Shown in pieces: positions 4,715-60,814 of a DNA stretch of 64,000 bases (positions are counted from its first letter, which is position 1; the number at the start of each line of letters is the position of its first letter). The notes beneath the pieces are model-generated. The model was not told where the DNA came from, ran no database searches, and saw only the letters and a program-made list of their open reading frames with translations. A program made the position numbers and the translations under genes. The stretch is from an uncultured Armatimonadetes bacterium (GTDB taxonomy: Bacteria; Armatimonadota; Hebobacteria; Hebobacterales; Hebobacteraceae), in NCBI GenBank assembly GCA_963716175.1, contig OY970296.1, positions 3,584,001-3,648,000 on the forward strand. The letters are read 5' to 3'.

Positions 4715-4744
4715 GTGGGGCGGGCATGTCTCTGCATGCCCGCC
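4715..4744 (+). repeat. REP (GTGG variant)
   Basis: gtgg-ggcgggcatg-tctctg-catgcccgcc. Confidence 0.75.
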
Positions 4745-41713: not shown

Positions 41714-42190
41714 CTACCACTCCAGGACCTCAATCTCGCCCTGGTACGGCCACTTATCGGCCGAGTCTACCAGTCTCGCCCGCTCTGGGTTGAGGCGGAC
41801 GTAGTCCCACTTTTCCGAGTATGATTCAGACTTCCGGAGAAGGTGGTCGAAGAACTCAAGCTGCCACGCGAATGTGGCGAGACAACTTTGGCGAATCCTC
41901 CGCTGCGCCCATCGTTTCCAACTTCCGATGAAGCGACTCAGCTCGCTCGCCTCGTCGTGTCGGGGTCCTGCAAAGAAGTGCACATGGTCCGGCATCACCA
42001 CATACCGACCCACACACCACTGATGTATGTCACCCGCGGCTTGCCAGGCATCCACCAGGAGCTTAGCTACCGGCTGGTCTGCAAGCACGGGCCTGCGATC
42101 TCGCACGCAGCAAGTGATCAAGTAGACCGGCTGCCGCCCGCGATGTCCATAGATACGGTCGAGTCGTGTGAGGTGCTTGCGTTCAGGCAC
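41714..42190 (-). mobile_element. rayT: REP-associated tyrosine transposase (RAYT/TnpA-REP, Y1 HUH family)
   Basis: YLITCC, YVVMPDHVHF (HUH), WQ..FFDHLLR, YVRLNP..ARLV...WPY; REPs on both sides. Confidence 0.92.

Positions 42191-54801: not shown

Positions 54802-54805
<4 letters not shown>
54759..54805 (-). repeat. two REPs (54759-54782; degenerate 54784-54805 overlapping the ilvC stop)
   Basis: gggcaggtt-gga-aacctgccctac; minus strand GTAGGGCTGGCC-TGC-GGCCCGTC. Confidence 0.7.
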
Positions 54806-55794
<989 letters not shown>

Positions 55795-55810
55795 GTTTCC
55801 TCTCCTCACG

Positions 55811-56176
55811 TTATCCACGTTTCCCAGGTTCTGCCGCGCCTCTCGTGCCCTCTTCGGCCCGCCGCCGCCAGATCACCCCCAGCGCCAGCCCGATCACCAG
55901 GCCGATCGCGAGGAAGAGGGCGAGGTTGATCAGCAGCCCTCGCACACTGTCCAGGCCATAGTGGCCGACGATGCTACTGTACATCCGCCACAGCAGCCAG
56001 ATGGCCGGACCCGCCAGCCCGCACAGCAGTCCCACGGCCAGATCGGCCGCCAGCCGGCGACGAATCGCGCCCGCCACCGCGCCCAGCAGCAGGCCAAGCG
56101 CCGGCAGCGCGACCGCGATCAGCGCCAGCGCCCGTTCCGCCTGCTCGACGGTGATCAGTTCCTTCATCTCGGACAT
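55811..56176 (-). CDS. hypothetical 3-TM membrane protein within the ilv operon
   Basis: three hydrophobic segments, coding-like composition. Confidence 0.7.
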
Positions 56177-56214
56177 CGCAGCATCCCAGCCGCCAGGTGG
56201 TCTGCCCAGCGCCC

Positions 56215-56291
56215 GGCGGGCATGCGGAGATGGCTAGGTTGCCGGAGGCAACCGCCATGGCGGCTCAGGCCTAGCCACATGCCCGCCCTAC
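56215..56291 (-). repeat. GTAG-REP carrying a nested 47-bp cloverleaf element (56231-56277)
   Basis: ggcgggcatgcggaga[tggctagg...cctagcca]catgcccgccctac. Confidence 0.85.
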
Positions 56292-56301
56292 AAGCGACAG
56301 C

Positions 56302-56788
56302 TTACGCAGTGCGAGGACCGCGGGAGAGCACGATGCGACCCGTGCGCATCACCTCTTTGATCCCGTAGTTGCGCAGCAGCCCGATCAGAGCGTCAATCTT
56401 GTCCGCCCCGCCCGTCACCTCGATGGTGAAGGTGCGATCCGAGACGTCCACGATGTTGGCGCGGAAGATGCTCACGGTCTGCATGATCTCGCCCCGGCTG
56501 GCCGGCTCTGCCTCCACCTTGATCAAGGCCAGCTCGCGCGACTATGATCGGCTCGTTCTGGTGGTCGAGCACCTTGATCACGTCCAGCAGCTTGTAGAGC
56601 TGCTTGCTGATCTGCTCCAGGATCGCGTCGGGCCCATCTACCACGATGGTCATGCGGGAGGTCTCCGGATCCTGGGTGGTGGCGACCGCCAGGCTGTCAA
56701 TGTTGAAGCCCCGCCGGGAGAACAGGCCGGCGGTGCGGGCCAGCACGCCGGGCCGGTTATTCACGAGCACCGAGATGGTGTGTTTCAT
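56302..56788 (-). CDS. ilvN: acetolactate synthase small subunit (frameshift near 56537)
   Basis: [29 protein letters not shown]; the next frame has ELALIKV...FRANIVDV...RTG. Confidence 0.93.
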
Positions 56789-56802
56789 GGCCGCCTCCCT
56801 GG

Positions 56803-58474
56803 TCAGTCCACCAGCATGTCTTCCACTGTGCCGCCGGCTGGCACCATGGGCATTACGTTCTCGTCACGCGCCACCTGGAAATCCACCAGGCAGGGCCGGT
56901 CGCTCACTGCCATCGCCTGCGCGACTACCTGCTCCACTTCCGAGTCCTTGGTCGCCCTCAGGCCGACCGCGCCATAGGCCTCGGCCAGCTTCACGAAGTC
57001 CGGGGAGCCGGTGGCGATGTCGGTGTGCGAGAGGCGCTCCCGGAAGAAGAGCGACTGCCACTGGCGCACCATACCGAGATAGCCGTTGTTCAGCACTGCG
57101 ATCTTCACTGGAATCCGGTTGGTCACCGCGGTCGCCATCTCCTGGATGTTCATCTGAATGCTGCCATCGCCGGCGATGTCCCAGACCACCTGCTCCGGGT
57201 GAGCGATCTGGGCGCCGATGGCCGCGGGCAGGCCGTAGCCCATGGTCCCCAGGCCCCCGGAGCTGATGAACTGCCGCGGCGCGCTTGCAGGGATACCACT
57301 GGGCCGCCCACATCTGGTTCTGGCCCACCTCGGTGACGATGATCGCCTCTCCCTTGGTGGCGCGATAGATCTCCTGGATCACATATTGGGGCTTCAGCCC
57401 ATCGCCCTTCCAGCGCAGGGGATATTGCTGCTTCCACTCCTCGATCTTCGCCCGCCACTCCGGGTGGCGGGCAGGCACCACCTTCTTTAGCAGCGCGTGC
57501 AGCACCAACTTGACGTCGCCCACGATAGGGAGAGCGGGGGCCACGTTCTTGCCGATCTCAGCCGGATCAATGTCCACATGGATGAACTTCGCGGCCCGCG
57601 CGAACATGTCCAGCTTGCCCGTCACCCGGTCGTCGAAGCGAGTCCCAGCCGCCAGGATCACGTCCGCCTCGTGCAGCGCGTAGTTGGCATAGGCGGTGCC
57701 ATGCATCCCAGGCATGCCCAGGGACAGATCATGGTCCTCCGGAAAGCCGCCCTTCCCCATCAGGGTCATGGTCACCGGCATGTCAGCTCGCTCGGCCAGC
57801 TCCACCAGCTCGGCCTGGGCGTCGGCGCTGTTGATCCCGCCCCCGCCGTAGATCAGGGGCCGCTGGGCCCCGTTGATCATCTCCGCCGCTCGCTCGATCA
57901 TCTTCACGTGCCCGCTCCGGGTGGGCCGATAGCCGCGCAGCTCCACCTTCTCCGGGTACTCGAAATCGAGTTCCGCTTGCTGCACATCCCGGGGGAAGTC
58001 CACCAGCACCGGGCCAGGCCGGCCGGTGCGGGCAACGTGAAATGCTTCTTTCAACACCCGCGGCACATCGGCGGCCTTGGTGAGCAGGTAGTTGTGCTTG
58101 GTGATGGGCATGGTGATGCCGGTGATGTCGGCCTCCTGGAAGGCGTCCTTGCCGATGGCGAAGGTTGGCACCTGCCCTGTGATCGCCACGATCGGCACCG
58201 AGTCCATGTACGCGGTGGCGATCCCGGTCACCAGATTCGTGGCGCCGGGGCCAGAGGTGGCCAGGCACACGCCCACCTTGCCACTGGCGCGGGCATAGCC
58301 ATCCGCGGCATGCGCGGCGCCCTGCTCGTGCCGCACCAGGATGTGGCGGATGTCCTTGACGTCGTACAGCACGTCGTAGATCGGCAGCAGGACACCGCCC
58401 GGGTAGCCGAAGATGACCTCGACTCCCTCGCGCCTCAGGCTCTCCATCAATGCTTGCGCGCCGGTCATCCTCAT
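56803..58474 (-). CDS. ilvB: acetolactate synthase large subunit (frameshift near 57280)
   Basis: [31 protein letters not shown]; the next frame has [23 protein letters not shown]. Confidence 0.95.
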
Positions 58475-60246
58475 GCTCTCACCTCTCTGCTCATCTCGCC
58501 ATTCACCATCATCACTGCGCCTCGCGCGGCCGAGGAAACTTGAGCCGCGTAGCGGGCCAGCCAACCGGTAGCAATCTTGGGCGGCAATGGCCTCCAACTA
58601 CGGCGCCGGTCTCTCAGCTCCCCCGCCTTGACCCGCAGCTCGATCTTCCGGCGGTTGATGTCAATCAGGATCTGATCTCCCTCTTGCACCAGGCCGATCG
58701 CGCCGCCAGCGGCGGCCTCTGGCGAGATATGACCCACGGAGAGGCCAATGGTCGCGCCGGAGAAGCGCCCGTCAGTGATCAGAGCAACCGATTCGTTGAG
58801 GCCCGCGGCGTAGATCTGCGAGGTGGGGTAGAGCATCTCCCTCATCCCCGGGCCTCCCCGGGGTCCTTCGTACTGTATTACCACCACGTCGCCCGGCTGT
58901 ATCTTGCCCTCCACGATCGCCTGGGTGGCATCTTCCTCCCGCGTGAAGACCCGCGCCCGGCCCACAAAGCGGCGCATCTTGCGCGCCACCGCCGACTGCT
59001 TCACCACCGCGCCATCGGGCGCCAGATTGCCGGTCAGGATGGCGATCCCGCCCTCCTTGTGGTAGGGCCGATCGAGGGGCCGGATCACCTCGGCATCGAG
59101 CACTCGCGCCACGGCGGCGATCTGCTGGGTAGGCAGGCCGCTCACTGTATTCGCGGCCTCGAGCTGGCCGGCGATCACATGCATCACCGCCGGTACGCCC
59201 CCCGCCCGGTCCAGGTCCTGCATCGCGTGCACCGCGGTGGGGCCGGGCAGGATATCCGTGATGTGGGGAGTGGTCCGCGAGATATCATCAAACCAACCGA
59301 TCGGCAGCTCGATTCCGGCCTCGTATGCGATCGCCGGCAGATGCAGCACCGTATTGCTGGAACCGCCCAGCGCGTTATCCACGCGGATGGCATTACGGAA
59401 GGCGGCTGTGGTGAGAATCGCGCGCGGCCGAACCTCTTCCCGCACCAGCTCCACGATGCGCTCGCCGCTGGCGTAGGCGATGCGCTTCCGCTCGGCCGAC
59501 ACCGCCAGGGCGGTGCCCGAACCGGGCAGAGAAAGGCCCAGCGCCTCCGTGAGGCAGGCCATGGTATTGGCCGTATACAGCCCCTGGCAGGAACCGATCC
59601 CCGGGCAGGCCGCCATCTCCAGCGCGGTGAGCTGCTGGTCGTTGAGGAGCCCAGCCTTGTGCCAGCCGGCCCCGTAATAGCCGTCGCCGTAGACGACATG
59701 GCCTGCGGCCAGGCGCTCGGCCGTTTTCGCGGTTTCGGGCTTACCCGCGGTGCGGAATTGCTCTGCGGCCGCCATCATATCATCGGCAAGGCGCGCGCAC
59801 TCGCCGGCCATCATTGGGCCCCCGGTCACCACAATCGCGGGGATATTGACCCGGACCGCCGCCATCAGCATGCCGGGCGTGATCTTGTCGCAGTTGGTGA
59901 GCAGCACTACGCCGTCAAACTGGTGGGCCTCTAGCATGGATTCCACCGAGTCCGCGATCAGCTCCCGGGATGGGAGGGAATAGTGCATTCCCGCATGCCC
60001 CATGGCGAGGCCATCGCAGATGCCGGGCAGGCCGAAGAAGAAGGCCGTGCCGCCAGCGGCGAAGATACCGCGCTCGATGTGGCGCTCCAGGTCACGCAGA
60101 CCGACATGACCGGGGATGATGTCGTTCCAGCTGGTGGCGACGGCGATGAAAGGCCGGTCAATGGCGCTTCGGCCCAGGCCCGACCCATAGAGCAGAGCGC
60201 GGTGCGGCGCCCGCTCCGGCCCCGTCTTGATCACATCGCTGCGCAT
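58471..60246 (-). CDS. ilvD: dihydroxy-acid dehydratase
   Basis: [60 protein letters not shown]. Confidence 0.97.
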
Positions 60247-60399
60247 AATGTCTCCTCGTCCAACCTGCCTAGAGCGCGTTTCATAACCTACCTGCTGGCT
60301 GGCCGCACCACGCCCTCGCATCAAATGCGCCTGCCAGGGCCTGACGTTGTGCAGTGCTGTCTCATAACCTCCCCTGGGAAGGTTATGAAACAGCTTCTA

Positions 60400-60775
60400 T
60401 GCAAAAACCTCTCGTCCCAGTTTGGGACGAGAGGCGCAGGTCTCTCGCGGTACCACCCAAATTGAACGACGGCCGTCGCCGACGTGATGGCCGCGTCCCA
60501 CTCTCTGCGCGCTAACGGGCGGCTCCCGGCACCGGCCTATGCTACTCTGCGAAGTAGCGAAGTAACATCACTACTTCGCTACGAAGCACGAGCTGGATGC
60601 GTTCGGCCGGGCAGCTCTGGGGCGAGATTCGGTGGCTAAGCCTGCCTCTAGCAGGCCGCCATGGCGGCCCTTTCGGGCCTAGCCACAGGTTCCCGGCGCC
60701 GGCTCCCAGCCCAGACCGGCTCTCTGGAGCCTGAGTCCCTGCCTACTGCTCCCCTTCGTCGCTTTTGCGGACTCG
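60400..60775 (-). promoter_or_regulatory. T-box riboswitch leader of the ilv-leu operon (probable Leu CUC specifier)
   Basis: minus strand: AGTA/GAA loop-E, CAGAGAGCC AG box, GCTGGGAGCC distal loop, GAAT-CTC-G specifier (60624-60626; AUC/Ile reading not excluded), CCGTTA, AATTTGGGTGGTACCGCG T-box. Confidence 0.95.
60403..60434 (-). terminator. T-box intrinsic terminator
   Basis: CCTCTCGTCCCA-AAC-TGGGACGAGAGG-TTTTT. Confidence 0.92.
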
Positions 60776-60784
60776 ACTGGAAGG

Positions 60785-60814
60785 ATTATAGCAGAGGCGG
60801 AAAGGCAGCGTCAA
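60785..60814 (-). promoter_or_regulatory. sigma70 promoter of the T-box/ilv-leu operon
   Basis: minus strand TTGACG-18-TATAAT with TG extension. Confidence 0.85.

Follow-up and report, generated by a model that had tools for sequence, protein, structure and literature searches.

The 47-bp insert described here belongs to a family of tiny DNA elements, about 100 in number, each of which is a pair of hairpins; they have a common fold, insert exactly and without target duplication, nest inside one another and are narrowly distributed, among Armatimonadota of a little-studied group. It lies in a stretch of 64,000 nucleotides (the window) that corresponds to positions 3,584,001-3,648,000 of a genome assembled as a single 4,560,930-bp contig with 66% G+C (G000). 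Copy 1 occupies positions 56231-56277 of the window and consists of TGGCTAGG TTGCCGGAGGCAA CCGCCATGGCGG CTCAGG CCTAGCCA, flanked by ggcgggcatgcggaga on the left and by catgcccgccctac on the right, with CA directly after the insert. Because no base is repeated at the junctions, the ends are unambiguous and a target duplication is absent. The joined flanks differ at two positions from the reverse complement of an uninterrupted repetitive extragenic palindromic sequence (REP) at 4715-4744, so that removal of the 47 bp restores a REP. A second copy at 60633-60685 has the same central 12-mer and different arms, and its left end, TGGCTAAG, departs from that of copy 1 by a single A/G difference. These observations had been made in an initial annotation of the window, and they read as described there. 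The parts of the two copies, and of the REP (here REP1) that hosts copy 1, are as follows.

56215..56230, minus strand: distal half (3' arm and loop) of the host REP1; the minus strand reads TCTCCGCATGCCCGCC.
56231..56257, plus strand: unit U of copy 1, TGGC-TA-GG-(TTGCC GGA GGCAA)-CC-GCCA, a bulged hairpin in the DNA minimum-energy fold.
56258..56277, plus strand: unit u of copy 1, TGGC-GG-(CTCAGG)-CC-TA-GCCA, a reverse-oriented hairpin with a short arm, by folding.
56278..56291, minus strand: GTAG half of the host REP1; the minus strand reads GTAGGGCGGGCATG.
4715..4744, plus strand: empty REP1, a GTGG-headed variant recognised by sequence, the unoccupied site of the initial annotation.
60633..60661, plus strand: unit U of copy 2, TGGC-TA-AG-(CCTGC CTCTA GCAGG)-CC-GCCA, from sequence and folding.
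60662..60685, plus strand: unit u of copy 2, TGGC-GG-(CCC TTTC GGG)-CC-TA-GCCA, from sequence and folding.

Each unit starts with one half of a 4-bp foot, a TA bulge and (G/A)G, continues with a hairpin arm of variable sequence and ends with C(C/T) and the other, complementary half of the foot, and the complete element is a zero-spacer inverted (head-to-head) doublet of such bulged hairpins, 42-60 bp in length and with GC-rich arms. The invariant motif of the unit is C-T-A-(G/A)-G, in which the C is paired within the foot and the TA is bulged, and a CTAG motif adjoins the arm on its 5' side, in the manner of the GTAG before a REP hairpin. Four types of foot were distinguished, TGGC/GCCA (U), TCCC/GGGA (V), CCCC/GGGG (W) and CGGC/GCCG (Y). 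Unit lengths range from 19 to 35 nt, and about 158-196 units are found by regular expression. A covariance model of the unit gives 100 matches at E<=0.01 in the genome, among 150 candidates scored, and unit U of copy 1 (G000 3640231-3640257) matches it with 38.2 bits; unit u of the same copy folds as a U-form hairpin when read on the minus strand. Whichever strand is folded, the DNA minimum-energy structure of each window copy is two bulged hairpins (z about -3.0 to -3.4), and in an 86-nt fold of copy 1 in its REP context the REP stem closes a three-way junction.

The initial annotation had instead drawn the insert as a cloverleaf, that is, a four-way junction at which an 8-bp closing stem, two arms of variable sequence and an invariant central palindrome meet. 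The homodimer form can be drawn in this way, switching between two structures has been proposed for REPINs (PMC3116915), and the site of nested insertion described below, CCGC^CATG, is the 5' loop edge of the central palindrome, as in REP loops. The covariation of the feet, however, points to two hairpins. When head and tail combinations are counted without requiring complementarity, the halves of the feet associate as 118 U-U and 40 V-V, with none mixed, and a looser scan recovers variants that replace both the palindrome and the closing stem, namely TGGCTAGG..CCGCCATCCCGG..CCTAGGGA and its mirror form. The centres CCGCCATCCCGG, CCGCCACCCCGG and CCGCCACGGCGG are as common as CCGCCATGGCGG, which had been taken for a fixed sequence. 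Pairs of units with unlike feet break both the closing stem and the supposedly fixed 12-mer, and what is conserved is not the cloverleaf. Of 55 pairs with hairpin arms, 53 have all eight foot positions paired under the two-hairpin model, as compared to 13 under the cloverleaf, and those 13 are exactly the U+u homodimers; a reversed-genome control produced five pattern matches. Heterodimers are commoner than homodimers, the A/G variant at stem position 7 is never compensated, the minimum-energy folds are those of two hairpins, and nesting at CCGC^CA is seen also in CCGCCATCCCGG-centred hosts, which are unable to form the palindrome. On the strength of covariation a functional cloverleaf already appears disfavoured, and it is very improbable.

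Compensatory change extends into the arms. An alignment of 51 units of 27 nt (49 of them distinct) was drawn from G000 and the genomes of five relatives; in the 49 distinct units 96.1% of 539 cells pair, versus 76.4% in shuffles, none of 500 of which reaches the observed value. Eight of the 11 pairs have changed on both sides, and slid controls pair at 21-56%. Since the rows were chosen for complementary feet, pairs 1-4 are circular, and it is the count of head and tail feet that provides the unbiased test, but the five arm pairs were unselected for pairing, and at column 12/18, for example, there are 23 CG, 23 GC and three other combinations.

Units occur in the genome as 117 clusters, 72 of which have two or more units, nearly all at spacing 0, with the 45 single units mostly found beside a degenerate partner. 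Cluster architectures comprise U+u (19), U+v or V+u (21), U+w or W+u (17) and a few nested forms, with heterodimers outnumbering homodimers and no V+v or W+w pair among the 117 clusters. By crude gene calls, 83 of the 117 are intergenic, as compared to about 25% of the genome. The spreading unit is the doublet and not the single hairpin: filled and empty sites always differ by a whole doublet, and nested inserts are whole doublets.

A strict pattern of the element has 20 loci in G000 and is present in 8 of 41 genomes in a set of relatives, whereas the same pattern read backwards has no match in any of the 41; the family is thus not a product of chance, and with the covarying feet these counts bear out the structure-defined repeat family that had been postulated from the two window copies. 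When the genomes of 185,579 species were scanned with the exact pattern, 35 loci were found, nearly all in metagenome-assembled genomes titled Armatimonadota, Armatimonadetes or 'Candidatus Hebobacteria', with one titled Bacillota and one 'uncultured bacterium'. Scans of the class and phylum used a pattern that also admits heterodimers and whose controls were 0 everywhere. It occurs in 13 of 31 genomes of the class, and by family (f1 to f5) in 10 of 14 genomes of f1, both genomes of f5, none of the 12 of f3 and neither of the single genomes of f2 and f4. Across the phylum, 11 of 401 genomes of at least 70% completeness carry it, all in f1 or f5, and the family is accordingly found, among the 401 genomes scanned, only in two families of one Armatimonadota class. 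Pairs number about 50 in G000 and in G018, about 20 in G008 and 10 in G009.

Evidence for exact insertion comes from filled and empty versions of the same site. REP1 has the structure GTAGGGCGGGCATG-loop-CATGCCCGCCCTAC, with about 536 heads within one mismatch in the genome, and 27 of the 72 multi-unit clusters are located between REP1 arms. Empty REP1 loops that match filled ones were found with ATGCAGAGACAT (7), ATGCGGAGACAT (5) and ATGGGCAT (13), of which ATGCGGAGACAT is the exact loop variant that hosts copy 1, carried by five further REPs that are empty. A relative, G011, has a 48-bp U+u inside another repeat, for which one filled and two empty paralogues exist in that genome; the empty paralogues are contiguous across GAGCGCAG^CGAAGC, the alignment gap is exactly 48 bp, and the junction is AG^CG. 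Two tRNA genes provide further cases. An intact tRNA-Arg(CCG) at 3,485,360 has a filled duplicate about 350 bp upstream (G000:C1:3484893-3485434), in which 62 nt are identical up to T-stem position 53, a 53-bp U+u follows, and the tRNA resumes at T54. After an intact tRNA-His come five tandem repeats of 162 bp (G000:C1:1774620-1775520), each with a copy of the 3' part of the gene and a 54-bp U+u between T-arm positions 53 and 54. The T-arm junctions are GG^TT. At all sites with an empty counterpart insertion is exact and a target duplication is absent, so that the precise, duplication-free insertion noticed at copy 1 holds in REP loops, the G011 repeat and tRNA T-arms alike.

A decayed IS has also served as a landing site. 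In the IS3-like transposase gene at G000:C1:1960500-1962400, orfA contains a U+v of 45 bp and orfB a U+u of 48 bp; the two inserts break otherwise continuous reading frames and add in-frame TAG stops. A search for empty paralogues spanning both insertion points found none, and the evidence at this gene is thus the interrupted reading frame only.

The order of insertion events can be read from nested copies. One nested U+v subfamily has seven copies with 0-1 mismatch in 51 nt, and a second nested subfamily has 11 copies with 0-3 mismatches in 51 nt. All 18 inserts lie directly after CCGC inside a resident doublet, two nucleotides before the 3' end of the resident unit, and in 17 of the 18 CA comes next. 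No two of the 18 hosts have the same arms, and the inserts are near-identical within each subfamily; young, uniform inserts in old, diverse hosts speak for recurrent and independent insertion at a single site within the resident unit. The same nested architecture, U+u within V..u within REP1, is present in G008 and G012.

Doublets are thus hosted by GTAG REPs, tRNA T-arms, Stem I of a T-box leader (see below) and resident doublets at CCGC^CA, and many of these sites lie next to a hairpin. When at least five consecutive Watson-Crick pairs are required, with one arm abutting the insert, 22 of the 72 clusters are at the edge of a host stem-loop, versus 162 of 5000 random positions; T-arms, with stems of 4-5 bp, and nested sites add hairpin-edge cases beyond this strict test. 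In the GGGCGGGGTCTCC REP subfamily the insert lies against the 3' arm and not the 5' arm, and a rule by which the 5' arm abuts the insert was rejected for this reason. A purine^pyrimidine junction fits most non-nested sites but not the nested ones at CCGC^CA. The left flanks are varied (GAGA, GG, CCGC, GCAG, GGGGG and others), and a conserved target tetranucleotide was not seen. CA or CT follows many inserts, not all, and no single rule was found to cover the sites; the initial annotation's insertion 5' of CA describes the REP-hosted copies and 17 of the 18 nested ones, but not the GG^TT junctions of the T-arms or the AG^CG junction in G011.

REP1 loops accommodate other families of inserts as well (for example G000:C1:917845, 1179376, 1465569 and 3046705). 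One of these has a 36-nt inner sequence, ATGCCCTTCGACTCCGCTCAGGGTAAACTCCGACAT, with at least 10 copies and about five longer parses, and further types of 28 nt and 42 nt occur. The bases of REP1 are conserved, and its apices are very diverse.

Both window copies are associated with ilv genes. The REP1 that holds copy 1 is part of an ilvD-ilvB-ilvN-ilvC operon; an ilvN-like gene with an ACT domain (56393-56788, minus strand) is its neighbour on one side, and on the other is an open reading frame of 121 codons, itself followed by ilvC (54802-55818). The GTAG half of the REP1 lies about 10 nt beyond the apparent stop of the ilvN-like gene. Copy 2 is within the leader of the same operon.

60420..60768, minus strand: T-box leader upstream of ilvD, matching RF00230 with 49.8 bits (E 4.8e-9).

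This match is below the gathering score of 93 and spreads the full model, positions 1-219, over 349 nt. The T-box motif GGGUGGUACCGCG is intact, and three regions are oversized: 71 nt in place of the model's 17, 63 in place of 9 and 25 in place of 9. Copy 2 occupies the first of these, the 71-nt region, which is an enlarged distal part of Stem I. Adjoining copy 2 at 60541-60592 is a hairpin repeat, gctactctgcgaagtagcgaag...ctacttcgctacgaagc; GCTACTTCGC motifs, which are similar to this repeat, occur in some REP1 loops elsewhere. Beyond the window, on the minus strand at G000:C1:3075671-3079628, lies a dnaE gene with a PHP N-terminus and a DNA_pol3_alpha domain, which stays open through at least two doublets (3078095-3078151 and 3076171-3076227) with flanking GGCAGGAG-type REP arms, and through other repeat-derived stretches; one frame change near 3077670-3077899 could be a frameshift or an assembly error.

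The initial annotation had proposed HUH/Y1 chemistry such as that of a RAYT. G000 has five PF01797 (Y1, RAYT-like) genes, one of which is in the window.

41861..42124 (Pfam-matched part), minus strand: RAYT-like Y1 transposase gene, PF01797 at 28.4 bits, in an open frame of 180 aa; its product is a candidate for an enzyme acting in trans.

Heads of GTAGGGCGGGC are located 291, 219 and 164 nt below the start of this match (G000 3625861) and 360 nt above it, and four of the five genes, the window one included, are flanked by such heads. The fifth gene (L060, G000:C1:1199810-1200300) is flanked by GGCAGGAG-type REPs. The hairpins beside L060 have the form GGCAGGAGC..GCTCCTGCC and are not GTAGGGCGGGC REPs; one has the apex GTCGCCAGAGGCGAC, and the same hairpin is the arm of many U units, which suggests a shared pool of GC-rich hairpin modules. 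Among 15 Y1 loci in six genomes (G000, G008, G010, G011, G012 and G018), not one has U, V, W or Y units at its flanks: no locus has a unit within about 150 bp, and two have one 170-400 bp away. A GTAGGGC head lies within about 1.5 kb of 10 of the 15, and in about seven the heads clearly form a pair around the gene (four in G000 and one each in G008, G011 and G010). The best-scoring Y1 gene of G018 (L061, G018:C61:19846-21940), the one whose flanks were read among three Y1 loci in that genome, lies within arrays of a different repeat, GGGCGCGGGGTTCTCCTAACCCCGCGGGGCCCGC.

The distribution of Y1 genes is broader than that of the doublets. PF01797 is present in 27 of the 31 class genomes, and its presence or absence was rejected as a tracker of the doublets because all 12 genomes of f3 have PF01797 and lack pairs. 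G009, an assembly that is only 74% complete, has 10 pairs and no Y1 match. GTAG REPs were found in 14 of 14 genomes of f1, 1 of 1 of f2 and 2 of 2 of f5, with only control-level single matches in f3, a distribution that is compatible with a RAYT link and confounded by phylogeny.

The best explanation of these data is a REPIN-like non-autonomous element that is moved as folded single-stranded DNA by a trans-acting HUH/Y1 enzyme, a reading that we judge to have an even chance of being correct. The doublet would fold as single-stranded DNA and be mobilised in trans, by way of a presumed single-strand intermediate, by an enzyme of HUH/Y1 type, for which a RAYT-like protein encoded in these genomes is the simplest candidate. 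The same enzyme would already have bound and nicked the hairpin that serves as target, which would explain both the hairpin-edge sites and the frequent ^CA and ^CT junctions. The doublet would then enter without target duplication, preferentially at the loop edge of an existing DNA hairpin, and successive insertions into hairpins would give rise to nested multi-hairpin structures. In the experiments reported in PMC8266576, RAYT cleaves at CT/CA adjoining the REP hairpin, group-2 REPs require a bulge, and one RAYT tolerates CTAG better than other GTAG mutants, cleaving it at a reduced rate; these results make a RAYT a reasonable but unproven agent. Nicking next to hairpins further suggests that the resident hairpins serve as targets because they are the enzyme's own nicking sites. 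A RAYT is thus a plausible mover of the doublets, as had been supposed, although none of the 15 Y1 genes is flanked by doublet hairpins. With a doublet in place of the cloverleaf and the RAYT link unproven, the observation behind the initial annotation is confirmed and its interpretation proves partly right.

A bolder interpretation, which we consider doubtful but worth entertaining, is that of an ultra-small mobile DNA (42-60 bp) recognised purely as a pair of bulged hairpins, with targets chosen by shape and an enzyme other than the RAYT of the co-resident GTAG REPs. Targeting by shape would mean integration at stem-loop edges in REPs, tRNA T-arms, riboswitch stems and the element's own copies, and would give rise to fractal-like trees of nested hairpins and to inserts that keep the frame of essential genes, dnaE among them. 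Somewhat less probable, and on balance unlikely, is that RAYTs are uninvolved and that a structure-specific recombinase of the tyrosine or serine type acts on the folded DNA, as integron integrases do on attC sites or as in IS607-type elements. That no RAYT is flanked by doublet hairpins, that G009 combines 10 pairs with no Y1 match, and that G018 has about 50 pairs yet L061 sits among a different type of REP would all agree with such an enzyme, and the conserved foot, extrahelical bases and freely varying apex resemble the logic of attC. Against it, no candidate gene was found, a GTTRRRY-type core is absent from the element sequences, and serine or tyrosine site-specific recombination needs a core shared by donor and target, of which the varied flanks show no sign.

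Two further explanations dispense with single-strand transposition. Selection as RNA, in which the doublets would be terminators, regulatory elements or stabilisers of mRNA and would have spread secondarily, accords with the position of both window copies in the transcribed ilv operon or its leader, with the mostly intergenic location of the family, and with roles credited to REPs in general (PMC3733652). The element is two-fold symmetric, however, so that both strands fold alike, and copies are found in both orientations relative to neighbouring genes, as well as inside an IS3 gene with stops, pseudo-tRNAs and dnaE. No Rfam family is matched: there are no matches at gathering score in the window, and at E<=1 the interval 56150-60800 gives only the host T-box and a chance-level match to raiA-hairpin. 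Since selection as RNA also leaves the exact insertion and nesting unexplained, it is improbable. The least probable account, which we give scarcely any credence, makes the element a MITE derived from a classical insertion sequence of DDE type, with terminal inverted repeats of 8 bp (TG...CA) as in the IS3 family. The homodimer does begin with TG and end with CA and has 8-bp inverted ends, and some IS3-family members target REP loops. The terminal inverted repeats with target-site duplication that mark a DDE MITE are not seen, however: duplication is absent at every site with an empty counterpart, the termini of heterodimers are unmatched (TGGC... with ...GGGA or ...GGGG), and no long element with these ends exists in G000.

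Insertion is not confined to intergenic DNA, as doublets enter functional structured genes, including tRNA copies, a T-box leader and dnaE. The movement and site choice of REPs and REPINs are still poorly known, and the family offers unusually clean natural experiments in the form of exact filled and empty pairs, an insertion order in which young uniform copies lie in old diverse ones, and a preference for loop edges. If the enzyme were found, the system would provide a compact model for structure-directed integration of single-stranded DNA.

A literature search revealed no prior description of the doublet family, consistent with the initial annotation's view of it as apparently undescribed, although supplements of the papers cited here may list related repeats. 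Among the matches listed, the motif words of the family appear only in unrelated primers or constructs, and the search returned nothing linking Armatimonadetes with repetitive extragenic palindromic sequences and no description of a repeat element for the phylum. Integron attC sites are recognised as folded single strands, as the doublets would be, with a conserved base, extrahelical bases and a variable apex; the doublets differ in that no R/L boxes, GTTRRRY core, cassette arrays or integrase context are seen. In IS200/IS605-type elements a bias of orientation relative to the direction of replication is expected. No such bias is apparent in the small numbers available (Uv 5/3 and Vu 6/7 per replichore), no fixed tetra- or pentanucleotide target is evident, and no autonomous relative was found in G000, where no gene is enclosed by a U...u pair 0.3-5 kb apart. 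The two hairpins of the doublet are mutually inverted, whereas those of IS200/IS605 elements have the same orientation, and at 42-60 bp the doublet is far smaller. What it shares with IS200/IS605 elements and their non-autonomous derivatives (PMC6006769) are the end hairpins, the lack of target duplication, a presumed single-stranded intermediate and the candidate Y1 HUH chemistry.

Closer parallels exist among REPs. The survey of Di Nocera et al. 2013, which covers GTAG/CGTC-tagged REP families and their HH and TT dimers, describes head-to-head dimers, some of them 1-2 bp apart (O. terrae), heterodimers between subtypes, REP dimers inside other palindromes (A. variabilis, T. roseum and H. neapolitanus) and in-frame REP inserts in genes including dnaE/dnaE2 (PMC3733652). 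The nesting reported there is of tagged REPs in untagged palindromes, whereas here an untagged doublet is inserted in GTAG REPs; the term Armatimonadota is absent from the text of that paper (PMC3733652). REPINs, REP doublets that form hairpins and are mobilised by RAYTs (Bertels & Rainey 2011, PMC3116915), resemble the present family in several respects: inverted doublets of short palindromic units are the replicative entity, singlets resemble decayed remnants, copies are extragenic, numerous and without coding capacity, tandem clusters include the flanks, stem changes are compensatory, and two alternative folds can be drawn (PMC3116915). They differ in that the spacer is zero here and tens of bp in REPINs (PMC3116915), and in that the doublet arms are not mutually complementary, so that no single long hairpin forms. 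There is no terminal GTAG, the CTAG tag instead being placed inside the 4-bp foot where it leaves a TA bulge, and no RAYT gene is flanked by doublets, which nest in GTAG REPs and in each other. Tolerance of CTAG by one RAYT (PMC8266576) means that the tag could function, yet the defining GTAG/CGTC tag is absent. The family thus has the short palindrome, the high copy number, the mostly extragenic location and the inverted doublet as replicative unit, and lacks a GTAG/CGTC tag at its terminus, a RAYT gene with the repeat on either side and the one long hairpin; because these last three are defining features of REPs and REPINs, it is classed as REPIN-like and not as a member.
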